Shown: positions 4,659 through 47,538 of the stretch, piece by piece
How the letters are laid out: each line of letters begins with the position of its first letter
How positions within the stretch are numbered: the first letter of the stretch is position 1
Source: Rhizomicrobium sp.
GTDB lineage: Bacteria; Pseudomonadota; Alphaproteobacteria; Micropepsales; Micropepsaceae
DNA: 64,000 bases
Direction: 5' to 3'
Assembly: GCA_037200045.1 (NCBI GenBank)
Contig: JBBCHM010000002.1
Coordinates: forward strand, 669,241 to 733,240
Notes under the pieces: generated by a model
Seen by the model: the letters and a program-made list of their open reading frames with translations, nothing else
Told to the model about the DNA's origin: nothing
The model's database searches: none
Made by a program: the position numbers and the translations under genes

Positions 4659-7013
4659 CTATTCCACATGCGCGTCGAATGTGACGCCGAACGACCTGGG
4701 ATCGCCGAGCACGCCGACGGCCGGCGTGATGGCCGACGCGGCGCCGACGCCGATGAGGTAGCGCTGGTCGGCGAGATTCTTGGACCAGAACAGCAGGGAG
4801 TATTTCCCGTCGGTCGTGCGCACGCCGATGCCGAAATTTGTCAGCCCATAGGCATCCTGCCACCCATAGCTCGAATAGGAATTGTAGACCGAGACCTTGG
4901 AGTGGAACGTCTGATTCAGATAGGTGAAGCCGGTGAAATCGTCGTCCAGCGGCACTTCGTAGTTGATGTTGAGCTGGGCGTTCCACAGCGGCGCGCCGGG
5001 AAGCTGCCTGCCGGAGAGGTCCACGGACTTCGTGATATTGGTGAGTTCGATCGGCGCCGGCGCGTCGACATAGGAAACATAGGTCGCGTTGTTGTAGGCG
5101 CCGCTAAGCGAGATCGTCAGGTTGTCGAGCGGCGCATAGGTCGTCTCCAGCTCGATGCCGCGCTGGCGCACGCGTGCGGCGTTGGTGAGATAGATCCGGG
5201 TCGTGGGTCCGGTGGTCACGGCGGCCGACGCCTGATAGTCGGAGATGTTGTTCCAGTAGAGGTCGAAGTTGGCGATCAGCCGCCCATCGAGCCAAGTCGT
5301 CTTGACGCCTGCCTCGTAGTCCGTCGCGCGTTCCGGCTTGATGATGACGGGGATGCCCGGCGCCGCGGTGGTGTTGACCGCGCCCGACTTCTCGCCATGG
5401 CTGACGGAAAAATAGGCGAAGATGTTGTCGTCGATCTTGTAGGACGGATTGATCAGCCAGGAGACGGAACCGAAATCCTTCTTATCGGCCACGACGAACG
5501 GCCCACCGAACGAGGCGAGCACGGCCGTGCGGTAAGGCGCCAGAGTCGGCGGCAGCGTCGCGCCACCGAAGGAAGAGGCATTGTCCGAGCCCGCCTTGTG
5601 CTCCCAGGTGTAGCGCAGGCCACCGGTGATCGTGGCGGCTTCGGTAATGTGCCAGGTGCCCTGGGCGAAGCCGGCATAGCTGTCGGTCGTGGCGCGGCCG
5701 GACTGGTCGTACTCCACGCCATTGAGGACCGCGGACGGCGCCGTCCGGCTGCCGAGCAGGGCCTCGGATGCGTCCGCGAAGAAGATGTCGCGATCGTTGC
5801 TGAGCACGCGCTCGTGCAACGCGTAGAAGCCGCCCTGATATTCGAAGGTCTGGCCGGTGGGCGAGGCGACGCGCAATTCCTGCGAATATTGCGAAACGTC
5901 GACATCGTAGCCGCCGCGCAGGATCGGGAATGGCGAATAATCGGAGTCGTTGTAGGGCCGGAAGCGCAGGCTGCGGAACGCGGTGATCGAGGTGATTGTG
6001 TGATCGCCGACGTCCAAATCGAACTGGTTGGAGATGCCGTTGACCGAGGAGTGCGTGATCCCCTGCGTGTCCATGTTGGCACCATGCGTCAGATCGAAGC
6101 TCGGCGTATAGCCGAATATGCCCTTGAGGATCGCCGACCAGCCGGCGCGCGGCACGCCGTTGGCGTAGTTCGGATCGGCGACCGGCGGGGTGTAATTGTT
6201 GAGCTCGTCGGTCTGGTTGTGCTCGATGATGAGACGGTCGCGGAAATTGCTGGTCGGCGTGAAGAGGAGCTGGCCGCGCACCGACCACCGGTCGGTGTTG
6301 AGCAGGTGGTCGTCATTGTAGTTGTTCTTGATCCAGCCATTCCCCTTGTCGCCGGAGACGGTGAGCCGGAAAGCCAGTTCGTCGTCGACGATGGGGCCCG
6401 TCACGTTGGCGCGGATCTGCTCCCTGTCATGGTTGCCGTAGGTGAGCGCGACGTCGGCGCCGTAATCGAAGCTCGGCTCCTGGGTCGTGATGACGACGGC
6501 GCCGATGGTGGTGTTCTTGCCCAGCAGCGTGCCCTGCGGCCCGCGCAGGACCTCGACATGGTCTAGATCGACGAAGTCGAACCAGCTGAAGCCGACATGG
6601 GTGAACACAACGTTGTCGACGATCAGACCGACGCCGGATTCGACGCCGTCGAAATTGGCGTTGCCGCCGAGGCCGCGGATCGAAAACTGCGACACGCGCG
6701 TGTTCTGCTGCACGGCGGAGAAGTTCGGGACCTTGTCCGCGTAGTCGGCGATGCGGTCCGCATGTTCGAGCTTCAGATTGCTGCCCGCGATCAGGGAAAT
6801 CGGCAGCGGGACGTCCTGGTTGTTCTCCGCGCGATGCCGGCCGGTCACGACGATCGATTCGATGGTTTCGGGCGGCGCGCCCGCATCGGCCACCGCGATC
6901 GGTCCCGCCGCGCTCCCATTGGCGTTCGCGGCATATGCCCCGGAGGTCACCAAAAGAGCGCTGCCAGCCAGCAGCGCCAGTCGGATGGACGAGAATCTTG
7001 CACCGGAATGCAT
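4659..7013 (-). CDS. TonB-dependent receptor, probably for organosulfur uptake
   Basis: Signal peptide, TonB box ESIVVTG, plug motif VEVLRGPQGTLLGKNTTIGAV, barrel motif ELRVAS; start MHSGARF at 7013. Confidence 0.92.
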   Translation of the reverse strand: MHSGARFSSIRLALLAGSALLVTSGAYAANANGSAAGPIAVADAGAPPETIESIVVTGRHRAENNQDVPLPISLIAGSNLKLEHADRIADYADKVPNFSAVQQNTRVSQFSIRGLGGNANFDGVESGVGLIVDNVVFTHVGFSWFDFVDLDHVEVLRGPQGTLLGKNTTIGAVVITTQEPSFDYGADVALTYGNHDREQIRANVTGPIVDDELAFRLTVSGDKGNGWIKNNYNDDHLLNTDRWSVRGQLLFTPTSNFRDRLIIEHNQTDELNNYTPPVADPNYANGVPRAGWSAILKGIFGYTPSFDLTHGANMDTQGITHSSVNGISNQFDLDVGDHTITSITAFRSLRFRPYNDSDYSPFPILRGGYDVDVSQYSQELRVASPTGQTFEYQGGFYALHERVLSNDRDIFFADASEALLGSRTAPSAVLNGVEYDQSGRATTDSYAGFAQGTWHITEAATITGGLRYTWEHKAGSDNASSFGGATLPPTLAPYRTAVLASFGGPFVVADKKDFGSVSWLINPSYKIDDNIFAYFSVSHGEKSGAVNTTAAPGIPVIIKPERATDYEAGVKTTWLDGRLIANFDLYWNNISDYQASAAVTTGPTTRIYLTNAARVRQRGIELETTYAPLDNLTISLSGAYNNATYVSYVDAPAPIELTNITKSVDLSGRQLPGAPLWNAQLNINYEVPLDDDFTGFTYLNQTFHSKVSVYNSYSSYGWQDAYGLTNFGIGVRTTDGKYSLLFWSKNLADQRYLIGVGAASAITPAVGVLGDPRSFGVTFDAHVE

Positions 7014-7091
7014 CGCACCGGTCGGATGGAATGAAAACACGCGATTTACCCCTACTCTGACTGCCACACAGCACCACGCATGTGCCACTTA

Positions 7092-7311: not shown

Positions 7312-8757
7312 CTAAATCCCCGCGCCCAGATCGACGAACTCGTCGGCGAGCAACGACCATTGCGGCGGCCGTCCGGCCTGCGTCACGGCAAGCTTCTGAA
7401 CCAGCCGCTCGATCTGGGTGTTGATTTCCGGGATCGCCGTGATCTCCCACCACGCCGGCCGTGTCAGGGGGCCGAGCGCGAAAAGCCAGCGGGAGATATT
7501 GCCGCGTGAATCGAGAACGGCGCTGTCGTCGGTCTCGATGCCGAGACCAAGAGCGTCCGGCAACACAAGGTGTTTGCGGACAAGGTCCGCGAGCAAGGGA
7601 TGCGCGATGGCGGACACATCGCCGCGCGGTCCGGTGCAGTTGAACATACGGGCGGCCCGGAAATGTTCTTGTCCCGCTCCCGGCGTCCCGAACGCGACGT
7701 CGATACCGTCCGGAAACGGCTCGGCGCGACGAATGCGTCCCGCCGCGATGCGAAGCTGGCCGCTTGCCGTCAGATCCCGCAGCCGGCTTGCGACGCGCGG
7801 CGCCATGCGATGGCGAACCGATGTCCAGAGCGTCCGCAGATGCCGGAAGAACTGCAGGCGCTCGGCGCCCGACCAGCCGTGCCAGATTCGCGCGGTCGCG
7901 GGACGCACGGCATCGATCACGCGCTGCCACGGCACGGCTTGCGCTTCGGCCTGCGCAATCGCGGCCCTGACACTGCGCAGCGCCTGCAACGGCGAGACAT
8001 GCCCCGCGTCCATGAACGGTGCCCAGAATCCGCCCGCGGCGTGCGTCGCGGGCACGACGCCATGGCGCGACAGAGCCAGCAGCGGTCCACGGTGGCCGCC
8101 CTCGACCAGCTTCAAGACAACGTCGACCATGGTGAGACCCGTGCCGACCAGCAGCACCGGCGCGGAAGGATCGATGCCGTCGAGCGCGTCCGCCGCCCAG
8201 GGATCGTTCGCCACGGACACATCCGACATCAGTCCGGGAATGGCCAGCGGACTCGCGGGAAGGTTGCCGGTCGCCAATACGATGCTGTCGGCCTTGACCG
8301 TCCGGCCATCGTCCAGGACCACGGCCGGCGTCGGCGAGTCCTCCAACCGGACGGCCTCGGCATGGACGACCTTCAGGCGGGACCGGCCGGCCGCGGCCTT
8401 GCGCGTCAGTGCTTCGAGATAGGCGCCGAATGCGTCCCGCACGACGAAGGCCGACGTAAGATCGCCACCGCTTTCGGCGAGAGCGGCCGTCAGATCGAAG
8501 GACTGGTCCTTCAGCCAGTCCGCAAAGCCCGGTTCCAACCCGATCTCGGCGCGGCTGACCGGGACATTCAACAGGTGGAACGGCGCACAGGCGCCATAGG
8601 CCAGCCCGCGCCCGAGGGCTCGGCGCCGTTCGATGAGGACGATGTCCGCATCCGGCAGACCGCGCAGGGCCTTGAGCGCAAACACCGCCCCGCTGAAACC
8701 GCCGCCCACCACGGCAATCGTTATGCGCGTCGTCGTGGACATATCCTGCACCGTCAT
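7312..8757 (-). CDS. FAD/NAD(P)-binding protein (YdhS-like) with CysE-like C-terminal tail
   Basis: VVGGGFSG, GRGLAY, HLLNVP, LVGTGLTMVD, FNCTGP, LFALGPLTR motifs; ends DEFVDLGAGI-stop. Confidence 0.85.
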   Translation of the reverse strand: MTVQDMSTTTRITIAVVGGGFSGAVFALKALRGLPDADIVLIERRRALGRGLAYGACAPFHLLNVPVSRAEIGLEPGFADWLKDQSFDLTAALAESGGDLTSAFVVRDAFGAYLEALTRKAAAGRSRLKVVHAEAVRLEDSPTPAVVLDDGRTVKADSIVLATGNLPASPLAIPGLMSDVSVANDPWAADALDGIDPSAPVLLVGTGLTMVDVVLKLVEGGHRGPLLALSRHGVVPATHAAGGFWAPFMDAGHVSPLQALRSVRAAIAQAEAQAVPWQRVIDAVRPATARIWHGWSGAERLQFFRHLRTLWTSVRHRMAPRVASRLRDLTASGQLRIAAGRIRRAEPFPDGIDVAFGTPGAGQEHFRAARMFNCTGPRGDVSAIAHPLLADLVRKHLVLPDALGLGIETDDSAVLDSRGNISRWLFALGPLTRPAWWEITAIPEINTQIERLVQKLAVTQAGRPPQWSLLADEFVDLGAGI

Positions 8758-8888: not shown

Positions 8889-9104
8889 AAAGCGCCCCAT
8901 GTCGCTCGCAGCCTCTTCCTTCGCCTCCGACCGCCGCTGGCCGGCCGCACCTTTGTGCCGGCCGACGGACGGATCAAGTCCGAACTGGCGACAACCGCGC
9001 GATCCGACAATGACGGGCTTTTCTGCGATGCGGGCGACACTACTTACAGAACTGGGTGTCCACACACAGGGCGGCATCGCGCCCCGGAAGAAAGAGAGCC
9101 TCCC

Positions 9105-10451
9105 ATGAGCAGTTCGCGGCAGTTGAAGCTTGGCGCCTTCATGCGACCCGTCGGGATCCACACCGCCTGGTGGCTCTATCCGGGCGCCTATCCGGACGCC
9201 AATTTCAACCTGAAGCATCTGGTGCGGTTCACGCAGAAGCTGGAACAGGGCAAATTCGACGCCTTCTTCATGGCCGATCACCTGGCGGTGCTGAACATGC
9301 CGATGTCGGCGCTGAAGCGTAGCGCCACGGTGACCTCGTTCGATCCGCTGACCCTGTTGCCGGCGCTGGCAATGGTGACGGAGCGCATCGGCCTCGTCGC
9401 CACCGCGTCGACGACCTATAACGAGCCCTATCACGTCGCGCGCAAATTCGCCTCGCTCGACCACATCAGCGGCGGGCGCGCGGGATGGAACCTCGTCACC
9501 TCCGGCAACCCGACGGAGGCGTGGAATTTCGGACGGGAGGAGCATTGGGAGCACGACACCCGCTATCGCCGGGCGCGCGAGTTCTTCGATGTCGTGACCG
9601 GGCTATGGGATAGCTGGGCGGACGACGCCTTCATCCGCGACACCGAGAACGCGGTCTATTTCGATCCCGACAAGCTGCACGTCCTCGACCACAAGGGCGA
9701 GTTCCTGAAGGTGCGTGGTCCGCTCAACGTCGCCCGGCCGATCCAGGGCTGGCCAGTGATCGTGCAGGCCGGTGCGTCGGAGGCCGGCAAGCAGATCGCC
9801 GCCGAAACCGCCGAAGTGATCTTCGCCGCCGGCGGAAGGCTGGCCGACGCACAGCGCTTCTATGCCGATGTGAAAGGCCGCCTCGACAGGCTCGGCCGGC
9901 CGCGCGACCATTTGAAAGTTCTGCCGGGCGCGCTGGTTGTTGTCGGAGATTCGGATGCGGAGGCGCGACGCAAGCAGGAATTGCTGGACAGCCTCGTCCA
10001 TCCGGACAGCGGCTTGCCGAACCTGTCGATGCGGCTGGGGACGGACGTCTCCGGTTTCGACCTTGACGGGCCGTTGCCGACGGACCTCCCCGAGACCAAT
10101 GCCAGCCAGAGCGGTCGCCAGGCGCTGATCGACCGCGCGCGGCGGGACAACCTGACCATCCGCCAGCTGGCGCGGATCGTCGGCGCCTATGGCGGGCTTG
10201 CCTTCGTCGGCACGGCGAAGACAATCGCCGACAAGATGGAAGAGTGGCTTTTCAGCGACGCCTGCGACGGGTTCAACATCATGTTCCCCACCGTGCCGCA
10301 GGGCCTGGACGAGTTCGTGGACCAGGTCGTGCCGGAGCTTCAGCGCCGCGGCATCTTCCGGCGCGAATATGAAGGCACCACGCTGCGCGAGAATCTGGGC
10401 TTGCCCCGGCCGGAGAACCGTTTCTTCGCCAAGACGGCCGCCCCGGCGTGA
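9105..10451 (+). CDS. LLM-class flavin-dependent monooxygenase (NtaA/DmoA/SoxA family)
   Basis: KFDAFFMAD, FDPLTLL, TASTTYNEPYHVARKFASLDHISGGRAGWNLVTS, QAGAS motifs; start MSSSRQLKLG at 9105. Confidence 0.92.
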   Translation: MSSSRQLKLGAFMRPVGIHTAWWLYPGAYPDANFNLKHLVRFTQKLEQGKFDAFFMADHLAVLNMPMSALKRSATVTSFDPLTLLPALAMVTERIGLVATASTTYNEPYHVARKFASLDHISGGRAGWNLVTSGNPTEAWNFGREEHWEHDTRYRRAREFFDVVTGLWDSWADDAFIRDTENAVYFDPDKLHVLDHKGEFLKVRGPLNVARPIQGWPVIVQAGASEAGKQIAAETAEVIFAAGGRLADAQRFYADVKGRLDRLGRPRDHLKVLPGALVVVGDSDAEARRKQELLDSLVHPDSGLPNLSMRLGTDVSGFDLDGPLPTDLPETNASQSGRQALIDRARRDNLTIRQLARIVGAYGGLAFVGTAKTIADKMEEWLFSDACDGFNIMFPTVPQGLDEFVDQVVPELQRRGIFRREYEGTTLRENLGLPRPENRFFAKTAAPA

Positions 10452-11545
10452 CGGCCGGCGGGGACGGCCTGACGCGGCGCGCATGGCTCGGTGCGGTGGC
10501 GGCCGGGAGCGTGGCGCTGTCGAGCGCGGTCGAAGCCGCGCCGCCGGTGCATGCGCGCCTGTCGTTGAACGAGAACCCGTTCGGCCCATCGCCGCTCGCG
10601 CGCCGCGCGATCCTGAAGCAGCTTGACGAGGCCGACCGCTATGTCGGCGGCGAGGCGCGCGCCCTGGAAGAACAGATCGCGGCGATCGAAGGGGTGTCCG
10701 CCGACCAGATCATCCTAGGCGAAATCCTCGACGCGCTGGGCCTGCAGCTCGCGCTGGACGGCGGTCCCGGCGGTGAGTTCGTCTATTCCGAGCCCGGCTA
10801 TACCGCGCTGGTCGATGCCGTGGCGCCAGGCGGCGGCGCGGTCGTCGGCGTGCCGCTGAACGATCGGCTGGAGAACGACCTGCCCGCCGTCGCGGCGCGC
10901 ATAACGCCGCGGACGCGCGCGATCTATCTCGTCAATCCGCACAATCCGAGCGGCACGGTCAGCGAGACCGCCGCGTTCAAGGCTTTCCTGCGCGCGGCCG
11001 CCGCGAAGACGACGGTCATCGTGGACGAAGCCTATCTCGAATTCGAGCCGGACTTCGCGGAGCGCACCGCCGTCACGCTGACGCGCGGGGGCGCGAATGT
11101 GATGGTCTTCCGCACCTTCGCGAAAATCTATGGCCTGGCGGGGTTGTCCATCGGCTATGCCGTAGCGCCGAAACCGCTCGCGGCTTCGCTGAAGAAGAAA
11201 GGGCTCGGCGCGCCGCACGAACTTAATCGTCTCGCGCTGGCGGCGGCGTCGGCCAGCCTGCGCGATAGCGGCTGTATCCCCGCGATTCGCGCCAAAGTGG
11301 TGGCCGAGCGCCAGGCCTGGAATACGCTGCTCGACGGCCTGGGTGTCCGCCGCAGCGACTCGCGCGGCAATTTCGTCTTCTTCGAGACGCGCCAGCCCCA
11401 TGAGACCTTTGCCGCCGCCCTGCTGGCCGAGGGCATCGAGATCGCCCGGGCCTTCCCGCCGCTCGACCGCTGGGCCCGCATTTCCATCGGCCTGCCCGAC
11501 GAGAACGCGCGCGCCCGTGCCGCAGTGCGCAAGCTGCTCGGCTGA
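10448..11545 (+). CDS. HisC-like PLP aminotransferase with twin-arginine signal peptide
   Basis: LSLNENPFGPSP, NPHNPSG, VDEAY, RTFAKIYGLAG; N-terminal LTRRAWLG + hydrophobic stretch + VEA; GTGA overlap with the LLM stop. Confidence 0.88.
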   Translation: MTAGGDGLTRRAWLGAVAAGSVALSSAVEAAPPVHARLSLNENPFGPSPLARRAILKQLDEADRYVGGEARALEEQIAAIEGVSADQIILGEILDALGLQLALDGGPGGEFVYSEPGYTALVDAVAPGGGAVVGVPLNDRLENDLPAVAARITPRTRAIYLVNPHNPSGTVSETAAFKAFLRAAAAKTTVIVDEAYLEFEPDFAERTAVTLTRGGANVMVFRTFAKIYGLAGLSIGYAVAPKPLAASLKKKGLGAPHELNRLALAAASASLRDSGCIPAIRAKVVAERQAWNTLLDGLGVRRSDSRGNFVFFETRQPHETFAAALLAEGIEIARAFPPLDRWARISIGLPDENARARAAVRKLLG

Positions 11546-11558
11546 GCAGTTGACTGGA

Positions 11559-11583
11559 CATACTCTATCATTCTGATAGAATA
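11559..11583. promoter_or_regulatory. Putative sulfur-regulon operator, site 3 (inverted repeat TCTATCA-TTC-TGATAGA)
   Basis: Perfect 7-3-7 inverted repeat at 11564-11580 in the AT-rich gap before cysE. Confidence 0.65.
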
Positions 11584-11644
11584 TCAGTAGATGTTGCTGA
11601 GGGCCGCGCCGCGGCCGGCGATGCCGGCCCGCGGACATCACGTC

Positions 11645-12604
11645 ATGAGAGATTCTTCGAAAGTCGCGCTTCGCGAGGAACCCTCCGGATCGTCCGGCGG
11701 CGCCCCGGGCGCGGACGGCGCGGCGAGCCCGCTGAATCTGGACACCGTCGTGGCCGAGCTGCGCCGATCGCGCGAGGTGACGCACAATATTCGCGAGGGC
11801 GGCATCGCCCGTCGGCTTCCGTCCAGCACGGCCATTGCCGGGATCGTCGAAGGACTGTCGGCCGCCCTCTTTCCCACTCATTACGGCCAGCCGGAGCTGA
11901 GCGGCGAGCGGATCGACGGGTTCGTCCGCGGCATGCTGGAAGACACGCTGGTGGCGCTGGAAGAACAGATCCGCCGCGCCCTTCCGCTCGGCGGCGACAC
12001 GGCGGAGCGCGACGCCGCAGATCGCGTGGCGCGCGACATTACGACCGCTTTCGCGGCACGGCTTCCTGCGATCCGCGCCCTGCTCGTGGCCGATCTGCAA
12101 GCGGCCTATGAGGGCGATCCCGCCGCGACGACGGTGACCGAAATCCTGCTCGGCTATCCCGGCATGGTGGCCGTCATCCATTACCGACTGGCGCGCGCGC
12201 TGCATCTACTTGGCGCGACGCTGATCGCCCGGCTGATTTCCAACATCGCCCATTCGCGGACCGGCATCGACATCCATCCGGGCGCCGAGCTCGGCACGAG
12301 CTTCTTCATCGATCACGGCACCGGCGTGGTGATCGGCGAAACCGCCGTCATCGGCGACCGCGTGCGGCTCTACCAGGCCGTGACGCTGGGCGCCAAGCGG
12401 TTTCCCGTCGATCGCGACGGCATTCTGGTGAAGGGCATCGCGCGCCATCCGATCGTGGAAGACGACGTCGTGATCTATGCCGGCGCCACGATCCTTGGCC
12501 GCATCACCATCGGTCGCGGCTCGACCATCGGCGGCAATGTCTGGCTGACGCAAAGCGTGCCGCCGGGAAGCAACATCACACAGGCGCAGACCCGCGATGC
12601 TTGA
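11645..12604 (+). CDS. cysE: Serine O-acetyltransferase (EpsC/SrpH-type)
   Basis: AAYEGDPAA, YPGMVAVIHYRLA, TGIDIHPGA, IDHGTGVVIGETAVIG, YQAVTLGA, RHP hexapeptide region; start 11645 preferred. Confidence 0.9.
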   Translation: MRDSSKVALREEPSGSSGGAPGADGAASPLNLDTVVAELRRSREVTHNIREGGIARRLPSSTAIAGIVEGLSAALFPTHYGQPELSGERIDGFVRGMLEDTLVALEEQIRRALPLGGDTAERDAADRVARDITTAFAARLPAIRALLVADLQAAYEGDPAATTVTEILLGYPGMVAVIHYRLARALHLLGATLIARLISNIAHSRTGIDIHPGAELGTSFFIDHGTGVVIGETAVIGDRVRLYQAVTLGAKRFPVDRDGILVKGIARHPIVEDDVVIYAGATILGRITIGRGSTIGGNVWLTQSVPPGSNITQAQTRDA

Positions 12605-13571
12605 GACCCTGTCCCGTCGCGGCCTGCTTCACGGCGGCGCGGCGCTTGCGCTGACGGCCGTGCCGCTCGCCAGCTGCGGCCGGAACACCGCCGCGCGGGC
12701 CGACACCGTCCGCATCGGGTACCAGAAGGACGGCGTACTCGTCATCGCCAAGCAGCAGAAGCGGCTGGAGCAACACCTCGCCGCGTCGGGGATCGGCAAG
12801 GTCGAATGGGCCGAATTTCCGTCCGGTCCGCCGCTTCTCGAGGCGCTCGCGGCCGGCGGCATCGATTTTGGCGCGACCGGCGACACGCCGCCGATCTTCG
12901 CCCAGGCGTCCGGCACCGACCTCGTCTACGTCGCCGCCGTCCCCGTGCGGGGTCGGAGTTCGGCGATCCTGCTTCCACCCAGCTCGAAAATCTCCCGCAT
13001 CGCGGATTTGAAGGGCGGCAGAGTCGCCTTCACGCGTGGTTCCAGCGCGCATTACTTCGCCGTCTCGGCGCTGCATTCGGCGGGCCTGACTCTGTCCGAC
13101 GTTACGCCGATCTATCTTGCGCCGTCCGATGCAAGGGCGGCCTTCGTGCGCGGCAGTCTCGATGCCTGGTTTATCTGGGACCCCTATTATGCCGATGCGG
13201 AGCGCAACGCCGGCGCGCGGGTCCTATCGAACGCCGAGCCCTTCGTCCACAGCGCCTCGTTCTTCCTGGCGTCAAGGGCCTTCGCCGAACGCAATCCCGG
13301 CGTGGTCCGCGCCATCCTTGACGAGCTGTGCACGGTCGGACAATGGATCGCCGCCAATCGGGCCGCAGCCAGCGAACTGGTCTCGAAGATCAATGGCCTC
13401 GACCTCGCAATCGTCAGCGCGGCGTTCGCGCGGGCGGATTTCGGGATCGTGCCGCTCGACGCCGGAATCATCGCCCGCCAGCAGGACGTGGCGGACGATT
13501 TCGCCCGCCTGGGCATTATTCCACATCCCGTGAAGGTGGCCGACGCCGTGGCGCATCTCGACTGGAAATGA
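12597..13571 (+). CDS. ssuA: Aliphatic sulfonate ABC substrate-binding protein
   Basis: [44 protein letters not shown]; SRR Tat motif and LASC lipobox. Confidence 0.88.
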
Positions 13572-13596
13572 ACCTCTCATCGAAAGCGAACATCCC

Positions 13597-14730
13597 ATGA
13601 CCCAAGACAAGAAACTCAATTTCTTCTGGTTCCTGCCGAGCGCCGGCGACGGCAGCTATCTCGGCTCCGAGGAACTGCGCCGGCCGGCGGATTTCGGCTA
13701 TATGCGCGACATCGCGCTGGCCGCCGACCGCCTGGGTTATGGCGGCGTGCTGCTTCCGACCGGCCATGGCTGCTTCGACGGCTGGACGCTGGCGTCGGCG
13801 CTGGCGCCGCTCACCGAACGGCTCAAATTCCTCGTCGCCCTGCGGCCCGGAATCCTGACGCCGGCGCTCGCCGCAAGGCAGGCCGCCGCGCTGGACCAGA
13901 TTTCCGACGGAAGGCTGCTGCTCAATGTGGTGACCGGCGGCAATCCGACGGAGCTTGCTTATGACGGCCTGTTCCTCGGGCATGACGAGCGCTATGAGCA
14001 GACCGCCGAGTTTCTCACGCTCTGGCGGCGCATCATGGCGGGCGCCCCGATCGATTTCCACGGCAAATACCTTTCGGCGAAGGGCGGCACGCCGCTCGTC
14101 TTCCCGCCGGTGCAGAGGCCGTATCCGCCGATCTATTTCGGCGGCTCATCGCCCGCCGGTGTCGCGGTCGCGGCCGAGCATGCCGATCTCTATCTCACCT
14201 GGGGCGAACCGCCCGCGCAGGTCGCGGAGAAATTCAAGGAAGTGCGCGAGGCCGCGGCAAGGGCCGGCCGCAAAATCCGCTTCGGCATCCGCTTGCACTT
14301 CGTGGTGCGCGAAACCGAAGCCGAAGCCTGGGACACGGCCAATCGCCTCATCAGCCGGCTAACGCCCGAGATCATCGCGACCGCGCAGGCGCGCATCGCC
14401 AAGCGCGTCGAGCAATCGGAAGGCCAGCGCCGCATGGTGGAACTGCACGGCGGCGGCAAGACGGACAAGCTGGAGATCAGTCCCAATCTGTGGGCCGGCA
14501 TCGGGCTGGTGCGCGAAGGCGCGGCGACGGCGCTGGTCGGCGATCCGAAGACGGTCGCCGAACGCCTCCGCGAATACCAGGCCCTGGGCGTCGATACGGT
14601 GATCGGATCGGCCTATCCGCATCTGGAGGAAGCCTATCGCGTCGCGGAGCTGTTGTTTCCGGCCCTCGGTCTTGGCGCCGGTGCCTCCACCATATTCTCA
14701 AGCGATACCAGGGCGCGCGCGGCGGGTTGA
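13597..14730 (+). CDS. ssuD: FMNH2-dependent alkanesulfonate monooxygenase
   Basis: [67 protein letters not shown]. Confidence 0.9.
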
Positions 14731-14737
14731 GAGGCAC

Positions 14738-15523
14738 CTAGCGCGGTGCCACCATGACCTGCACGATTCCGCCGGCGGATATGACGGAACAGTCGACGCG
14801 CCACACCCGCGCGATCCGTTCGGTGGTCAGCACGTCCTGCGGCGCGCCTTCCGCCTCGACGCGGCTATGCGCCAGCACGATCAACCGGTCGGCATAGGCC
14901 GCGGCGAGATTGAGGTCGTGCAGGATCGCCAATACGCCGGCGCCTGCCCGCGCGATGTCGCGCGCCTTGGCGAGAATCGCGTGCTGGTGAAACAGATCGA
15001 GGCTCGATGTCGGCTCGTCGAGCAGCAGGAAACGAGCCCGGCCGTCGGTCAGCGGATCCCACAATTGTGCCAGCGTGCGCGCATAGTGCGTACGATGTAG
15101 TTCGCCGCCGGACAAGGTCCGGCAATCGCGCGCCGCGAACGCGGCCGTCTCGGTGGCAGCCATCGCACCATGCACCGCAGCGCGGTCGGCATCGCGGTTG
15201 GCGCGGCCGCGATGAGGATGACGGCCGAGCTCCACCACGTCCCAGGCGCGGAACGAGAAGGCGAGTTCGGGCGATTGCGGCAGGACGGCGCGCTGCAATG
15301 CGAGGTCCTCGGGCCGCCAGGACGACAAGGCCTTGCCGTTGAGCGTGACGTGTCCCGCTTCCGGCACGATGTCGCCGGAGAGGACTTTCAGAAGCGTCGA
15401 TTTGCCGGCGCCGTTGGGTCCGACGACGGCGGTCACCGTGCCCGGTGGCACCTCGATGGTGACACCGTCGAGAATGCGGCGTGCGCCGGCTCGCACGACA
15501 ATGTCCTGTCCGCGCAGGCTCAT
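14738..15523 (-). CDS. hmuV: Heme ABC transporter ATP-binding protein
   Basis: GPNGAGKST, LSGGE, LAQLW, LLLDEPTSSLD, LHDLNLAAAYAD. Confidence 0.92.
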   Translation of the reverse strand: MSLRGQDIVVRAGARRILDGVTIEVPPGTVTAVVGPNGAGKSTLLKVLSGDIVPEAGHVTLNGKALSSWRPEDLALQRAVLPQSPELAFSFRAWDVVELGRHPHRGRANRDADRAAVHGAMAATETAAFAARDCRTLSGGELHRTHYARTLAQLWDPLTDGRARFLLLDEPTSSLDLFHQHAILAKARDIARAGAGVLAILHDLNLAAAYADRLIVLAHSRVEAEGAPQDVLTTERIARVWRVDCSVISAGGIVQVMVAPR

Positions 15524-16602
15524 GGCGCGGCCTCGCCCAGGCGGCGGCGCAACAGCCAGATGAAGAACGGCGCGCCGAGCGCGCTGGTCACGACGCCGAT
15601 GGGAAGCTCGGCCGGCATGACGAGCAGCCGCGCCGCGACGTCGGCGAGCACGACCAGCAAAGCGCCCAGCAAAGCCGAACCGGGCAGGACGAAGCGATGC
15701 GCCGAGCCGCCCATCAGGCGCAGCAGATGCGGCGCCGCCAGGCCGACGAAGCCGACGATGCCGGTCAGCGCCACGCCGGCACCCACGCCCAGCGCCGTCA
15801 ACAGGATGGTGACGCGGCGGATGGTTTCGACGGATAGACCGAGATGGCCGGCGGCGCTTTCGCCCAGTGCCAGCACGTCATAGCTGCGCAGCAACGGCCC
15901 GAACGCGGCGAGTGCCGCCGCCATCAGGAGCAGCACCGGCCAGATCTGATCCCAGGTCGCGCCGCCGAGGCCGCCCAGGAGCCAGAACGTCAGGGCGCGC
16001 AATTGGGCGTCGCTGCCCAGATAGGTCAGATAGCCGACGATCGCGGTTGTCAGCGCGTTCACGGCAAGGCCCGCGAGCAGCAAGGTCGCTACATCCGTGC
16101 GAGAACGCGAACGGCCGATCGCATAGACCAGGGCCGTCGCCAGAAGCGCGGTGGCAAAGGCCGCCATGGGCAGCGCAAAGGCGCCGTGCATCCATAGCGG
16201 CGCGCTGGCGCCCAGGACGATCCAGCCGACCGCGCCGCAGGCCGCGCCGCCCGACACGCCGATCAGGCCGGGATCGGCCAGCGGATTGCGGAACAGCGCC
16301 TGCAGCGCGGCGCCCGAGACTCCGAGCGTCGCACCGACGCCGAGGCCGAGCGCGACACGCGGCAGGCGGATACTAAAGAGTGCGGCGTTTTCGACGGACG
16401 AGACCGGTATTCCGATGTCGATCCCAAGACGGCCAAGCAGCGCGGCCACGACATGGGAGAAGGGAATCGACAGCGCGCCGACCGTGGCGGCGAGCAGGCA
16501 GGCCGCCGCCAGCGCGCCCGCCAGTCCCGCCAATATAATGTGTCGGCGCAACCGCAGCGGATCACGGACCGGATCGAAAGTACTTTCCGCGACAACCGCC
16601 AT
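15520..16602 (-). CDS. hmuU: Heme ABC transporter permease (FecCD family)
   Basis: IRLPRV, LFRNPLADPGLIG, FWLLGGLG, ELPIGVVTSALGAPFF. Confidence 0.92.
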   Translation of the reverse strand: MAVVAESTFDPVRDPLRLRRHIILAGLAGALAAACLLAATVGALSIPFSHVVAALLGRLGIDIGIPVSSVENAALFSIRLPRVALGLGVGATLGVSGAALQALFRNPLADPGLIGVSGGAACGAVGWIVLGASAPLWMHGAFALPMAAFATALLATALVYAIGRSRSRTDVATLLLAGLAVNALTTAIVGYLTYLGSDAQLRALTFWLLGGLGGATWDQIWPVLLLMAAALAAFGPLLRSYDVLALGESAAGHLGLSVETIRRVTILLTALGVGAGVALTGIVGFVGLAAPHLLRLMGGSAHRFVLPGSALLGALLVVLADVAARLLVMPAELPIGVVTSALGAPFFIWLLRRRLGEAAP

Positions 16603-16607
16603 GGCGA

Positions 16608-17465
16608 TCAGTGCAGCGTCGCGATTGCAGGCGCGTGCAGCGCCGCCGCCAACGCCGCAAGCGCATCGGGCGTGCGCGGCCCAAAGCCCAGCAACAGCAG
16701 CGCATCCATCGCGACGATGCGTCCCGACTGGCCGGCGGGCGTCATCGCGATCTCCGGGCGGGCGCGCAGCGACTCGATGCCGCCCAGCATGCGCACGGCG
16801 TGATCGGCGACGATGATGACATCGGGCTTGAGGTCGATGGCCGCTTCCGGCGTGAGCGGCTTATAGCCGCTGAAGCCGGAAGCGACATTCTGCGCCCCCG
16901 CGAGCGTCAGCATCACATCGGCCGCGGTGTCGCGGCCGGCCGCCATGGCGCCACCGGGCCCCTGCGCCATCAGGAAGACCGCGCGCGGATGGTCGCGGAA
17001 AGCCGCGAGCCGGACCTTCACGCCGGCAAGCGCGGTTCGATATCTGTCTTGCAAAGCTTTGCCGCGGTCTGCGACGCCCAGCGCCTCGGCGATAATCGCG
17101 ATCTTCGCCGGCACGGCGTCCGCGCTATGGGCGTTCGGCACATGGACGATTGGGATGCCCGTGGTGCCGAGTTGCGTCATCGCCGCCGGCGGCCCCGCAT
17201 CCTCCGACGCGAGAATGAGATCAGGCTTGCAGGAGAGCACGCCCTCGGCCGCGAGCGTGCGCAGGTAACCGACCTGCGGCAGCTTGGTGGCCGCCGCCGG
17301 ATAGAGCGAGGTCTGGTCGTCGCAGACGATGCGGCCCTGCTGCCCGAGCGCGAAGACGATCTCGGTCACGTCGCCACCCAGCGTCACGATGCGCCCGGCG
17401 GGCGCCGCCGAAGACGGCGCCGCCACGAGCCACAAAGCGGCCGCAAGGCCGATCGCACGCTTCAT
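16608..17465 (-). CDS. hmuT: Heme ABC transporter periplasmic binding protein
   Basis: Signal peptide; VTLGGDVTEIVFALG, DQTSLYP, QVGYLR (heme-ligand Tyr), GFGPRT; ATG 17465 overlaps the hmuS stop. Confidence 0.92.
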   Translation of the reverse strand: MKRAIGLAAALWLVAAPSSAAPAGRIVTLGGDVTEIVFALGQQGRIVCDDQTSLYPAAATKLPQVGYLRTLAAEGVLSCKPDLILASEDAGPPAAMTQLGTTGIPIVHVPNAHSADAVPAKIAIIAEALGVADRGKALQDRYRTALAGVKVRLAAFRDHPRAVFLMAQGPGGAMAAGRDTAADVMLTLAGAQNVASGFSGYKPLTPEAAIDLKPDVIIVADHAVRMLGGIESLRARPEIAMTPAGQSGRIVAMDALLLLGFGPRTPDALAALAAALHAPAIATLH

Positions 17466-18544
17466 GGAGATACCGGAATGGCGGAGAGGATCGCGCGCCA
17501 CGCTGCAAGTTCCGGCTTGCCGGGCTTGCGGGCCCCGAACAATTGCGTGAAGCAGAAGCCATCCTTGTCGAACAGTTCGAGCGAAGTGACATCGCCGTCC
17601 CGCGTCGGTTTGCGCACGACCCAGGCGGAGGCGATCGCGTCCTCGCGCAGATGCAGGTTGAAGGTCGGATCGAGCACGTTGAACCACGGCCCCATGCGCT
17701 TGAGATTGGTCACCGTGCCGGTATGGATCTGGATGCAGCCGGGATTGCCGACGAACACCATGATCGGCGTCGAAGTATCGTGCGCGGCTTCGAGGACGCG
17801 GGCGAGCGCATCGGGCACGACGGCCCGCGCAAACGAGGAGCCGGCGAGCCGCAAAGCCTGCAGGCGCCCGACTTCGAGGCCCCGCAGCATGCCGAAGAAC
17901 TCATGGGTGTCTTCCAGCGCCGACCATTCGCGGCGCAGGCGTTCGACATCGATCTCGGTATCGGCGCGGTCGCCTTTCGACGCCGGCACGTCCGCGATTT
18001 CGAGCACCGGCGACTGGTCCGCCGCCCGCCAGCTTTCGATCAGCCGGTCGAAGGCCGCGATGTCCGTTGCCGGCTTCTGATAGATCTTGTGAACCGCCGC
18101 GCCATCGGCATCGAAGATCTGCAGCGAGCGGCGCGGGCCGTCGTCGGTCTCATCGATCACCGCGAAGGTGTGGTGCCAGCGCGACGGGAAGATGCGCAGG
18201 TCGATCTGCTCGCCCAACACCAGCCCATGCATCGCATTGATGGTGACGTCCAGATAGGGACCGATCTTCTCGTGCACGCAATGCTCGTTGCGGGTCAGCG
18301 CCATCACCGGGCCGAGGGCGGGGATGTCCTTGACGATGTTCGCCCCGTCGGTGCGAAGACGCGTCGCGCTCGTGCCGACAAGGCTCGCGATCAACTCGCC
18401 TTCACTGACGCGCAGGCGCAGGGCGGCGTCACGCGAACGGAGTTTTCCGCCGGTCCGCTCGTTGAGCTCGTTCCAGGCACTGCGTAGGGTCGCCCCCCAC
18501 AGACGTTTGCCCTTCGTGGGTGCGGCAATTGCGGCGTCGCTCAT
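17462..18544 (-). CDS. hmuS: Hemin-degrading/trafficking factor HemS/ChuS/HmuS
   Basis: RSRDAALRLRVSEGEL, RNEHCVHEK, IDLRIF, DTHEFFGML, MVFVGNPGCIQIH; duplicated HemS domain. Confidence 0.93.
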   Translation of the reverse strand: MSDAAIAAPTKGKRLWGATLRSAWNELNERTGGKLRSRDAALRLRVSEGELIASLVGTSATRLRTDGANIVKDIPALGPVMALTRNEHCVHEKIGPYLDVTINAMHGLVLGEQIDLRIFPSRWHHTFAVIDETDDGPRRSLQIFDADGAAVHKIYQKPATDIAAFDRLIESWRAADQSPVLEIADVPASKGDRADTEIDVERLRREWSALEDTHEFFGMLRGLEVGRLQALRLAGSSFARAVVPDALARVLEAAHDTSTPIMVFVGNPGCIQIHTGTVTNLKRMGPWFNVLDPTFNLHLREDAIASAWVVRKPTRDGDVTSLELFDKDGFCFTQLFGARKPGKPELAAWRAILSAIPVSP

Positions 18545-18568
18545 TCGGTCCTCCGATAACGATCTGTA

Positions 18569-18629
18569 TTGCAATTGACTCGCAATTGCAAAAATGGTGC
18601 ATTGAGATTGCACCTGCGAGTCATTCGCA
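18569..18629. promoter_or_regulatory. Fur-alpha-type iron boxes in the hmuS/hmuR divergent promoter
   Basis: TGCGAGTCATTCGCA at 18615-18629 (TGCGA-N5-TCGCA) and TTGCAATTGACTCGCAA at 18569-18585; resemble the alphaproteobacterial Fur box as recalled. Confidence 0.65.
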
Positions 18630-18655
18630 GTCAAGCCAGATTGAGGGGCTCTTTA

Positions 18656-20773
18656 ATGCGTAATTTTCGCCGTTTGCTTTTGACGTCCGTTTGTTTTCTG
18701 ACCGGCGCGGGAGCGGCCTGGGCCGATGGCGCCGCGCCGCTGCAGGTGGCGTCGGTCGAAACCGTAACGGTGACGGGAACGCGCAATCCGACAGCGGTCG
18801 CGACCTTTCCCGGCATGGTGGATGTGCGCGATTACAACGAGATCCAGGCGGACATCCCGTCGACCGTGTCGGACCTGTTTTACGGGATGCCGAACGTCCA
18901 GTTCGTCGGCGGTCCGCGGCGCACCGGCGAGAGCCCCAGTATTCGCGGCCTGGGCGGCCAGGACGTGTTGGTACTGGTCGATGGCGTTCGCCAAAGCTGG
19001 ACGTCCGGCCATGACGGCCAGTTCTTCCTCGATCCGTCGCTGCTCGCCGGCGTCGATGTCGTGCGCGGCCCCAATTCGTCGCTCTATGGTTCCGGGGCGC
19101 TGGGCGGCGTGATCGCGTTTCGCACGGTCGACGCCTCGGACCTGCTCGGCGCGGGCCTGACCGCCGGCGTCCGCGTGGCGCTCGGCTATCAGGGCGTCGA
19201 CGACGAGTTCCTGCGCATGGCGACGGGCTTCACCCATATCGGCGATCTCGACGTCATCGGCAGCATCGGCGAACGCAGTTCCGGCAACATCAAGCTCGGC
19301 TCCGGCGCTTCGCTCGCCGCGGACGACGACGTCGTCACCGGTTTCGGCAAGATCGGCTACGATTTCGGCGATGGGCTGAGCGTCAAGGTATCCTATCAGG
19401 GCTATCAGGACGACGCGGTCGAACCCGACGACGGCCAGGGCGTTTCGACTGGGGCGCCGATCGACAAGCGCGTCACCAATCAGCAGGTCTCCGGCGAAAT
19501 CGACTGGAAGCCCTCCGGCACCGACCTCGTCGATCTGCACCTGACGCCTTATCACGTCGAAGGCAGGGTCCTCGAAATCGATCCGGCGACGGGCGATCGC
19601 GCGGTACAGGACATCAAGACCGACGGTTTCAGCGCCGACAACCGCATTCCCTTCGCCTTCGCCAACGTTTCCGGCCTCTTCACCTTCGGCGGCGAGTGGT
19701 ATCAGGACAGCCAAGTCGGCACCGACAGCGCCGGGGTCGGCGGCGTGCGCTCCGGCGTGCCGAACGGCAAGGACGAGTTCTGGGGCGCCTTCGCGCAGAT
19801 CGAAGCCACTGTCGATCATCCGCTGGGCGCGCCCGGCAAGCTGACGCTGATCCCGGCCGTGCGTTACGATTCGTTCAGTTCCTCCTCCACGGGCAATCCC
19901 GACCTCAACAAGAGCGCGACCTCGCCCAAGCTTGCCGCAACCTACGCGCCGGTCGACTGGTTCTTCATCTTCGGCAATGTCGGCGAGGCGTTCCGCGCGC
20001 CGGGAATCAACGAACTCTATCTGAGCGGTATTCACTTCGAAGTGCCGCACCCGATTCTGCCCGGCGTTTCGGTGGCGAACACGTTCCAGCCCAATCCCAA
20101 TCTCAAGCCGGAGACGTCGAGATATTGGGAGGCCGGCGCCGGCGTGTTATTCAACGATGTCGTCACAGCGGGCGACACGCTGCGCGGCAAGGCCTCGTAC
20201 TGGAATCAGAACGTCGACGACTTCATCGATCTCAGCGTTTTCACGCCGCCGACCTTCTACAGCATGGGTTGCTTCACGCCGCCGACCTTCCTGGCCGGCT
20301 GCAATGTCGGCCAGACGACTTCGGTCAATGTCGATGCGAGTCTGCACGGCGCCGAGGTGGAAGCGATCTACGACGCGCCGCGTTGGGCGCTGCAGGCCGA
20401 CTACGGCACGATCAGCGGCAAGGAACGCGGCACGCCTTTCGCGCTGAACTCGCTGATGCCCGATATCGTCTCGCTGATCGCGACGCTCAAAATTCCGGAA
20501 GTGGACAGCGCCTTGAACCTGCGCGTGCAAAACGCGGGCTCGTTCCACAAGAGCTACGATCCGGCCAGCAACGATCCGCCGACCGACGACCGCAAGGGCT
20601 ACACGCTGCTGGACCTCTATGCGAGTTGGCAGCCCAAGGGCAGGCTGCAGGGGTTCAGGGTCGACGCGGGTATCGACAATCTGTCGGACGCCGATTACGC
20701 GCCCTATGCCCAGGGCGTGAGCGCGGCGGGACGCAACATCAAGATCCTCGCCAGCTATAGCTACACATGGTGA
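18656..20773 (+). CDS. hmuR: TonB-dependent heme/hemoglobin receptor
   Basis: ETVTVTGTR, GHDGQFFLDP plug (His), VVRGPNSSLYGSGALGG, FRAP and NPNLKPE motifs, C-terminal YSYTW. Confidence 0.93.
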   Translation: MRNFRRLLLTSVCFLTGAGAAWADGAAPLQVASVETVTVTGTRNPTAVATFPGMVDVRDYNEIQADIPSTVSDLFYGMPNVQFVGGPRRTGESPSIRGLGGQDVLVLVDGVRQSWTSGHDGQFFLDPSLLAGVDVVRGPNSSLYGSGALGGVIAFRTVDASDLLGAGLTAGVRVALGYQGVDDEFLRMATGFTHIGDLDVIGSIGERSSGNIKLGSGASLAADDDVVTGFGKIGYDFGDGLSVKVSYQGYQDDAVEPDDGQGVSTGAPIDKRVTNQQVSGEIDWKPSGTDLVDLHLTPYHVEGRVLEIDPATGDRAVQDIKTDGFSADNRIPFAFANVSGLFTFGGEWYQDSQVGTDSAGVGGVRSGVPNGKDEFWGAFAQIEATVDHPLGAPGKLTLIPAVRYDSFSSSSTGNPDLNKSATSPKLAATYAPVDWFFIFGNVGEAFRAPGINELYLSGIHFEVPHPILPGVSVANTFQPNPNLKPETSRYWEAGAGVLFNDVVTAGDTLRGKASYWNQNVDDFIDLSVFTPPTFYSMGCFTPPTFLAGCNVGQTTSVNVDASLHGAEVEAIYDAPRWALQADYGTISGKERGTPFALNSLMPDIVSLIATLKIPEVDSALNLRVQNAGSFHKSYDPASNDPPTDDRKGYTLLDLYASWQPKGRLQGFRVDAGIDNLSDADYAPYAQGVSAAGRNIKILASYSYTW

Positions 20774-24651: not shown

Positions 24652-24774
24652 GGTGAAATCCCTCCCCTTCTCGCTCGCTACGGGCGAGCACCGATTATTT
24701 TTTTTGTTTTGGCGTCTTGGTTCGTCTCTCCTGGACGACCTCCTCCGAGTCCCGTTTCCCGTGAAAATTGCTGC

Positions 24775-30269: not shown

Positions 30270-30387
30270 CGCAATCGCCTCCCAGTCGCCGTTTCTGTTC
30301 GTCCAGACACTCTTCGGGTCTGTGGCGCCTGCCCGCCCGGGTCGAGAAAAGGGCTTGAGCAAACGTCGCACCGATCATATAGATTAT

Positions 30388-45219: not shown

Positions 45220-47538
<2,319 letters not shown>

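Follow-up and report, generated by a model that had tools for sequence, protein, structure and literature searches.

A conserved C-terminal G-x-G-I tail on YdhS-type flavoproteins and on unrelated sulfur proteins, with CysK as candidate receptor

The YdhS-type flavoprotein encoded in the window, as we call the whole stretch of 64,000 nucleotides of Rhizomicrobium sp. DNA analysed here (contig JBBCHM010000002.1), ends in a C-terminal tail that closes with G-x-G-I-COOH, is conserved throughout its clade far beyond chance and recurs on unrelated proteins of sulfur metabolism. The tail resembles the peptide with which CysE of enterobacteria docks into CysK, and the comparisons reported below suggest that CysK, or a paralogue from the CysK family, is probably the receptor of the flavoprotein tail as well, this being the best-supported reading of the evidence. 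The parts of the gene on which the argument turns are as follows (window coordinates).

7312..8757 (including the stop codon), minus strand: YdhS-type (PF13454) FAD/NAD(P)-binding flavoprotein gene, from open reading frame (ORF), Pfam and AlphaFold2
7315..7350, minus strand: C-terminal tail, residues 470-481 (LADEFVDLGAGI), from conservation, entropy, codons and low pLDDT
7351..7386, minus strand: variable linker from the last helix to the tail, residues 458-469 (VTQAGRPPQWSL), from entropy and models
8689..8706, minus strand: N-terminal FAD dinucleotide-binding motif GGGFSG, residues 18-23, from family-wide conservation
7627..7641, minus strand: N-C-T-G-P motif, residues 373-377, with Cys374 conserved family-wide, tail-less relatives included

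Conservation, distribution and predicted structure of the tail

The ORF encodes 481 amino acids and terminates in ...KLAVTQAGRPPQWSLLADEFVDLGAGI followed directly by the stop (in short form, ...LLADEFVDLGAGI-stop), an ending of the type G.GI that is unique to the flavoprotein among the 555 window ORFs of at least 60 amino acids. Together with the Pfam assignment to NAD_binding_9 (PF13454; 92.1 bits against a cut-off of 21.8, 4.5e-26) and Pyr_redox_2, this bears out the original prediction of a YdhS-like flavoprotein with a GxGI tail at 7312-8757. The Pfam match to Lys_Orn_oxgnase is marginal (21.7 bits, cut-off 21.3), no NCBIfam model was significant, and Pfam detected no Hexapep or SATase_N domain, the likeness to CysE being confined to the tail. 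The database gene call for this protein (P0001, 465 amino acids) is shorter by the first 16 codons, counted from the ATG at 8757; it begins inside the first beta-strand of the FAD-binding Rossmann motif and so removes that strand; the longer ORF, with which the homologues agree, is the plausible choice. An exact database look-up of the window protein returned no record. The window sequence derives from a wood-decay metagenome, and the search for RNA evidence found it only in DNA runs of that metagenome.

Across the clade, the tail follows the consensus L-A-[DE]-x-F-x-D-[LIM]-G-x-G-I-COOH. Conservation of the terminal GxGI or Ile among homologues, which the original prediction had proposed as its first check, is nearly complete: of the 120 protein clusters that matched best (50-82% identity), 118 show the ending [FL]-x-D-[LIM]-G-x-G-I, the two exceptions looking truncated, and all 83 genome loci (82 fetched, plus the window) end in [FL]-x-[DGN]-[LIM]-G-x-G-I. 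The refuting outcome named with that prediction, a lack of conservation in homologues, is thereby decisively excluded. The underlying scan used one genome per species and gave 80 loci, from Rhizomicrobium, Caulobacter, Xanthobacter, Sphingomonas, Kaistia, Steroidobacteraceae and a Myxococcota metagenome-assembled genome (MAG), among others; the tail-clade gene of Methylocella silvestris BL2 was obtained separately, by looking up its contig. In the alignment of 105 sequences (A2), G478, G480 and I481 are invariant and L470, F474, D476 and L477 are conserved to at least 90%; the terminal Ile is present in 105 of 105 aligned sequences as in 83 of 83 loci, with the stop always directly after it. 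In this alignment, the tail has a lower column entropy (0.95 bits) than the enzyme body (1.21); the 12-residue linker between them reaches 3.07 bits, and the linker region is also variable in length (28-33 residues after the PEI..Q motif). Four synonymous codons are used for Gly(-3), four for Gly(-1) and three for Ile(0), as are all three stop codons, which places the selection at the level of the peptide rather than of a DNA element. Elsewhere in the flavoprotein loci, the tail was found on just 3 of about 7,800 other ORFs, one of the three being a genuine tailed persulfide dioxygenase.

The boundary of the tail within the family was located by a search of 1.8 billion proteins clustered at 50% identity, with a single representative standing for each cluster. 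G-x-G-I is carried by the ten best full-length matches (42-52% identity) and by three fragments; the motif is complete in nine of these full-length matches, and P0129, the divergent tenth, retains only ...RGYGI. The 137 other representatives among the matches listed lack G-x-G-I and mostly end soon after the last helix, which in the distant relatives reads WE.TAVPE.R.QA..LA and is not followed by the motif. The dividing line falls at about 45% identity, the tail being present in representatives at or above this level and absent below it; the tail-less relatives retain all catalytic motifs. One relative of 40% identity, P0175, ends ...TVVDAGVGR, which aligns with FVDLGAGI except that Arg replaces the terminal Ile, and may represent a decayed tail. 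On this distribution, the tail is understood as a clade-specific add-on to the PF13454 flavoprotein family.

The structural models agree with such an addition. AlphaFold2 gave a confident enzyme body (pTM 0.86 with 32 sequences, 0.89 with 105), in which the last helix spans residues 441-460 and gives way to a linker without secondary structure; distant relatives stop after this helix, and the claim that the tail is appended through a linker is thus upheld. Residues 461-481 show pLDDT of about 40-60 in both runs, falling below 50 in the last six residues (32-sequence run) or the last three (105-sequence run), and do not pack on the body. The tail is predicted from these models to be flexible, solvent-exposed and able to reach a partner. 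Searched against the Protein Data Bank (PDB), the tail sequence had no match.

The same models bear on whether the tail could instead act in cis or within a homodimer, either by autoinhibition as a pseudosubstrate or by covering the flavin or substrate pocket like a lid, with the Ile carboxylate mimicking an amino-acid substrate. The best PDB fold match (Foldseek) is the aspartate N-hydroxylase FzmM (8cp2, TM 0.71, E 1e-19), which binds an amino acid, and the N-hydroxylating monooxygenases DesB, KtzI, PvdA and SidA come next (TM 0.60-0.63); a family-profile sequence search of the PDB gave partial Rossmann matches only, none close in sequence. Family-wide conservation includes the two dinucleotide motifs, N373-C374 (C374 in 100% of the tail clade and 96% of tail-less representatives) and an Arg/His/Trp-rich helical insert (R305, H306, R308, W311, R315, H316, R317), with an Arg/His-rich pocket (R305, H306, R308, R315, H316, R317), and the nearly invariant F474 could stack on the flavin. 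However, AlphaFold2 leaves the tail undocked even with 105 sequences, the relatives without it keep every catalytic motif, and four other unrelated folds, a membrane exporter and a DNA-binding regulator among them, carry the same tail. A role in cis is accordingly regarded as highly improbable.

The same tail on unrelated sulfur proteins

The genuine tailed persulfide dioxygenase (PDO) mentioned above belongs to locus L004, on contig JAXLZA010000002.1 of the Myxococcota MAG. It is ETHE1-like and ends ...QDAEPDLGAGI, and its gene is convergent with that of the flavoprotein. A metagenome scan with this protein as query gave 80 PDO loci (L098-L177) comprising 2637 ORFs. Eleven stand-alone PDOs from the scan end ...GRQD[AV]E.[WD][FLMI]G.GI (for example, ...GRQDAEPWLGMGI); four PDO-rhodanese fusions end ...G[LM]DI and one (L114) ends ...AMAI; four ArsR/BigR-type regulators, encoded divergently from the PDO genes, end ...W[RK]G[DA]GI; and one TauE/SafE exporter ends ...GFEYEEGAGI. 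Endings of the form G.[GD]I occur on 20 of the 2637 ORFs, and all 20 belong to these PDO, fusion, regulator and exporter families. Every complete regulator in a tailed-PDO locus is tailed (four of four), and the sole regulator in a tail-less locus is untailed. A single tail on five unrelated folds, membrane and DNA-binding proteins included, implies a common trans-acting receptor; the comparative data, in short, argue for a GxGI tail that is modular and is read in trans.

Several loci combine a regulator, a PDO and a TauE or other membrane protein that all end in G-x-[GD]-I (L121 884-2203, L160 2669-3973, L101 1680-3252, L100 2160-4322). Tail-less versions of the same ArsR/BigR-PDO-exporter operons exist as well, the tails co-occurring per locus. 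The plasmid collection was searched for a cultured strain that carries a tailed PDO; its best candidate, from Burkholderia multivorans, proved to be a tail-less PDO-rhodanese. Locus L004 itself is a five-gene sulfur cluster (10001-16977) that includes the tailed flavoprotein and the tailed PDO (11501-12334, minus strand), a cysteine desulfurase whose long N-terminus is of low complexity (12372-13955, minus strand) and a protein of 507 amino acids in which a cNMP-binding domain and a candidate encapsulin-like shell region were recognized by eye (13942-15465, minus strand). Its fifth gene (16063-16977, plus strand) encodes a serine O-acetyltransferase (SAT) ending ...GPEYTI, which coexists with the two GxGI-tailed proteins. 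With the encapsulin assignment made by eye, the cluster resembles the sulfur-starvation operons of family-2 encapsulins.

A strictly C-terminal, flexible peptide with a hydrophobic end, shared by functionally related proteins of unrelated folds, a regulator among them, is also what a degradation or quality-control tag would look like, and such a tag could give sulfur-stress proteins a common conditional half-life. We consider this improbable. Extending over eight positions, two of them invariant glycines, the motif exceeds in specificity the C-terminal degrons known to us; the GDGI end of E. coli CysE is known for CysK binding and not for tail-dependent proteolysis; and an alternative tail in the flavoprotein family, YDWVI (see below), again matches CysE tails.

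Sulfur context of the flavoprotein family and of the window gene cluster

Relatives of the flavoprotein with 37-45% identity, which lack the GxGI tail, are found fused to domains of sulfur metabolism. The fusions (P0172, P0198, P0206, P0213, P0235, P0249; also L093 6884-9169) add a C-terminal rhodanese, a C-terminal persulfide-dioxygenase-like (Blh) metallo-beta-lactamase (MBL) domain, an N-terminal cysteine dioxygenase (CDO_I) domain or DUF6356; DUF6356 is also encoded by a gene of its own a short way upstream in Lichenicola (L090 11087-11314). The MBL fusion gene of Nostoc is the last in an ssuA-ssuD-ssuC-ssuB operon, and the PDO of L004 is 51.5% identical to the MBL domain of this fusion. 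Two flavoprotein paralogues of Shinella flank an Rrf2 regulator next to sulfate ABC transport genes, genes for SsuA and a monooxygenase of the LLM type adjoin tail-clade genes in Xanthobacter, and a PDO-rhodanese gene is located directly upstream of the tail-clade gene in L035 and L040. By these fusions and operons, the flavoprotein family is tied, at the level of gene organization, to the metabolism of thiols, persulfides and sulfonates. The flavoprotein is thus envisaged as an NAD(P)H/FAD enzyme of class-B flavin monooxygenase fold from a family acting on small sulfur metabolites. The chemistry proposed for the family is that of thiols, persulfides, sulfinates or sulfonates, the sulfur context suggesting a substrate other than the amines of the N-hydroxylases.

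The flavoprotein gene of the window is divergent from a five-gene operon (8955-14730, plus strand) and is followed downstream by a receptor gene, a pairing that is repeated in the 82%-identical relative P0002.

4659..7088, minus strand: TonB-dependent receptor, downstream of the flavoprotein gene (Pfam Plug and TonB_dep_Rec_b-barrel)
8955..10451, plus strand: NtaA/DmoA-family FMN-dependent (LLM) monooxygenase (TIGR03860, 562 bits), with the true start likely near 9105
10448..11545, plus strand: HisC-like class I/II aminotransferase (Pfam, NCBIfam)
11591..12604, plus strand: EpsC-type SAT (NF041874, 157 bits against a cut-off of 150)
12597..13571, plus strand: SsuA-type sulfonate-binding protein (TIGR01728, 229 bits)
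13597..14730, plus strand: SsuD-like LLM monooxygenase (Bac_luciferase, 1.4e-80)

The SsuA-type and SsuD-like genes mark the cluster, as annotated, as one of organosulfur scavenging. Its SAT, 45% identical to that of L004, ends ...TQAQTRDA and has no terminal Ile, in keeping with the original description of a tail-less CysE in the divergent operon. The conclusion drawn there, that the missing CysE tail signals a rewired cysteine synthase complex, does not hold as a rule, since a SAT is a neighbour in only 3 of the 83 tail-clade loci and in L004 both SAT and flavoprotein are tailed. For the same reasons, a reciprocal arrangement, with the tail on either protein and never on both, was considered and rejected. 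Plasmid p2 of Pararhizobium qamdonense (NZ_CP119567.1; L089 8210-11871) unites the same three gene types as the window, namely genes for an LLM monooxygenase (67% identical to that of the window) and a CysE and a convergent gene for a tail-less YdhS-like protein, and there the Ile tail (...EPEYII) is on the SAT instead of the flavoprotein. A second YdhS-like paralogue lies 5 kb off in L089, next to a 2OG-Fe oxygenase gene.

Further genes of the window are recorded here for orientation. A haem-uptake cluster comes right after the sulfur cluster (14738-20773), with genes for an ABC ATPase, a FecCD permease, a periplasmic binding protein, a HemS/ChuX haem-degrading protein and a TonB-dependent receptor, and two more TonB-dependent receptors are encoded at 22333-24774 and at about 45541-47412. 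A gene for an FMO-like/Pyr_redox_3 flavin monooxygenase-like protein of 654 amino acids (28410-30374, minus strand) adjoins genes for a GntR/FCD regulator and an alpha/beta hydrolase, and is unrelated to the tail finding.

CysK as candidate receptor and likeness to known systems

CysK is favoured as receptor because its active site is the only documented reader of G-x-G-Ile-COOH, and because CysK consumes sulfide. The clients of CysK known to us are few: CysE, one contact-dependent inhibition toxin, possibly CymR and, in worms, EGL-9. The D-L-G-x-G-I of the flavoprotein tail matches the CysK-binding peptides E-Y-G-D-G-I of E. coli CysE and G-Y-G-I of CdiA-CT. In the case of CysE, the terminal Ile accounts for about 80% of the binding energy and places its carboxylate in the CysK active site (PMC9547175). 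The GYGI tail of CdiA-CT inserts into CysK, and shortening of the tail abolishes co-purification with CysK (PMC11724271). The decapeptide HHTFEYGDGI of Salmonella CysE (StCysE) binds to and competitively inhibits the CysK of Pseudomonas with a Ki of about 0.5 uM, even though Pseudomonas CysE itself has no terminal Ile; the peptide site of CysK stays competent where the CysE tail is lost, and the question of what binds there has been asked (PMC12895370). The known complexes of CysK gain stability from sulfide and come apart with O-acetylserine (PMC12895370). That CysK-family proteins bind Ile-terminated tails of proteins other than CysE is summarised in the same article (PMC12895370). The acceptance of Ile tails by CysK is therefore established; apparently new are the carriers and the network that they seem to form; descriptions of these tails, or of a function for the subfamily, were not found in the full-text literature searched.

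A second tail clade in the flavoprotein family links it to the other class of CysE tails. Rhizobiales CysE ends in Ile in 119 of 120 cases, typically as E-P-[ED]-Y-x-I, with variants AFDWVI and EFDYVI. A search from a tail-less representative ending in Ile found flavoproteins from Acidobacteriota (Pyrinomonadaceae, Blastocatellia; P0197 and P0407-P0411, e.g., L096 10001-11509) in which a variable linker, some 40 residues long, leads to the ending ...RE[QT]S[LV]YDWVI. As judged from the motif, the YDWVI tail is a convergence on the D[YW]VI type of the Rhizobiales CysE tail, carried independently of the GxGI tail. Other endings in the family are DFVI, NYII, TYAI and AYEI, with DYQI or AMYI on the cyanobacterial MBL fusions. 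Of the 249 family members without GxGI, 17 have a terminal Ile with an aromatic residue at one of the two preceding positions, as compared to 11 of 4088 background ORFs; the 17 represent about seven lineages and are not independent counts. The MBL gene upstream of the YDWVI-clade gene in L096, considered as a PDO, is actually a ligase-associated exonuclease, unrelated to PDO.

The following mechanism is proposed. One clade of the family has gained a disordered linker of about 10-15 residues together with a 12-residue peptide ending Φ-G-x-G-Ile-COOH (Φ, hydrophobic), and this peptide would serve as a tethered docking motif in trans. The carboxylate of the terminal Ile would occupy the O-acetylserine carboxylate site of CysK, as in CysE and CdiA-CT; sulfide would strengthen the docking and O-acetylserine would undo it, which would in this way couple the flavoenzyme and the other tailed proteins to the sulfide/O-acetylserine status of the cell. 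The identity of CysK as the receptor is inferred, as is any activating, inhibiting or localising effect that docking may have on either partner. A CysK partnership is partly supported by three independent comparative lines, the sulfur ties of the family, the YDWVI clade and the modular GxGI tail.

Several observations weigh against CysK. Most tail-clade genes are without conserved sulfur neighbours, and synteny around them is seen only within genera. The tails of sampled Rhizobiales CysE are of the EYxI type and not GxGI, so that the flavoprotein tail is not a copy of the local CysE; the original notion of a CysE mimic is borne out in the likeness to the enterobacterial CysE and CdiA-CT type, and it fails for CysE of the Rhizobiales. 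The DYQI endings of the MBL fusions might belong to the MBL fold rather than form a free tail. Lastly, tblastn searches with the CysK of E. coli as query, covering about 170 loci, gave no cysK in the window, none at up to 10 kb from the 83 flavoprotein and 80 PDO loci, and none on the plasmid and contig loci; the missing linkage is weak evidence, because cysE and cysK are unlinked in E. coli too.

Such evidence could be taken to mean that the GxGI tail docks on a different receptor specific to sulfide or persulfide (e.g., a scaffold, SQR, a sulfur carrier or a chaperone), its likeness to CysE and CdiA-CT being coincidental or partial. PDO, PDO-rhodanese, TauE and ArsR/BigR proteins are concerned with sulfide oxidation and not with cysteine synthesis, none of the window, flavoprotein or PDO loci has cysK nearby, and the family-specific residues before GxGI (GRQDAE.W in PDOs, LA[DE].F.D in the flavoprotein) exceed what peptide studies of CysK give as required. 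Against this, the literature searched gave no second receptor for a C-terminal GxGI-COOH, and the YDWVI tail of the same family matches the other class of CysE tails, which an unrelated receptor would not predict. The tailed genes also lack a conserved accompanying candidate: all-against-all clustering of the ORFs from 83 flavoprotein and 16 tailed-PDO loci revealed no conserved neighbour that could be the receptor, and from the shortage of conserved neighbours at most tail-clade genes the partner is likely encoded elsewhere. An Lrp/AsnC neighbour noted in Lichenicola was rejected as conserved partner, since it recurs in two loci only. On balance, a receptor other than CysK seems unlikely.

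With CysK retained as the probable receptor of the flavoprotein tail, a wider reading can be put forward tentatively, with somewhat less than even confidence: CysK or a paralogue might be a general hub sensing sulfide and O-acetylserine in many soil and freshwater bacteria, with a portable peptide (Φ-G-x-G-I or D-[YW]-x-I) grafted repeatedly onto a flavoenzyme, PDO, PDO-rhodanese, a TauE sulfite exporter and the persulfide-sensing ArsR/BigR repressors. Occupancy of the CysK active site would then switch sulfide oxidation, sulfite export and organosulfur scavenging together with their transcription. If CysK docking holds, bacteria would have a post-translational means of matching cysteine synthesis to the detoxification of sulfide and the scavenging of sulfur, and a first functional handle would be gained on PF13454/COG4529, a large family that is uncharacterised. 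Candidate CysK clients are now amenable to test in at least five families handling sulfide, persulfide, sulfite or organosulfur, and cultured carriers of the tail include Methylocella silvestris BL2, Xanthobacter autotrophicus, Caulobacter ginsengisoli, Sphingomonas oligophenolica, Kaistia dalseonensis, Lichenicola cladoniae and Hansschlegelia plantiphila. Should CysK not be the receptor, a widespread docking motif would still need a reader.

Regarding known systems, the enzyme body and the tail of the flavoprotein have different analogues. E. coli YdhS (b1668) shares the Pfam domain and the N-terminal GxGxxG; of 534 amino acids and about 21% identical over 250 residues to a relative, it ends ...RRRLSFD, tail-less and with no sulfur context. 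FzmM/CreE, SidA, PvdA, KtzI and DesB have the same two-Rossmann FAD/NADPH fold, and the PF13454 domain is labelled "HpyO/CreE-like" in a source database. Identity to these N-hydroxylases is, however, just 12-17%, Cys374 and the Arg/His cluster are conserved in the flavoprotein family, and the gene context is sulfur rather than siderophore or nitro-compound biosynthesis; we know of no enzyme of the FzmM/CreE/SidA/PvdA/KtzI/DesB type with such a tail.

Concerning the tail, enterobacterial CysE offers the same flexible C-terminus with an acidic-hydrophobic-G-x-G-Ile-COOH sequence, an invariant Ile and a role in sulfur assimilation, and the E. coli protein does end in FEYGDGI (...NHTFEYGDGI), as the original prediction had it. 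The carrier here is a flavoenzyme instead of a hexapeptide acyltransferase, its tail is preceded by a hypervariable linker and CysK binding is predicted; the hosts, moreover, are mostly Alphaproteobacteria, and CysE of the sampled order, Rhizobiales, ends in EP[ED]YxI. CdiA-CT(EC536) is another protein unrelated to CysE that acquired GxGI-COOH, and P0129 ends exactly in its GYGI. CdiA-CT is an interbacterial tRNase that hijacks the CysK of the target cell and depends on its GYGI tail for activation, whereas the flavoprotein is a resident metabolic enzyme, for which a physiological and not a parasitic use of the tail is expected. For CYSL-1/EGL-9 of C. elegans and CymR-CysK of B. subtilis, a CysK-family protein that serves a regulator as metabolite-sensing partner and passes on sulfide or O-acetylserine status is described in summary in PMC12895370. 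The tailed ArsR/BigR regulators would be the closest analogue to these systems, with different carriers and organisms, and the hub, if it exists as tentatively suggested, would be a bacterial counterpart, and a possible evolutionary source, of CYSL-1/EGL-9 signalling.

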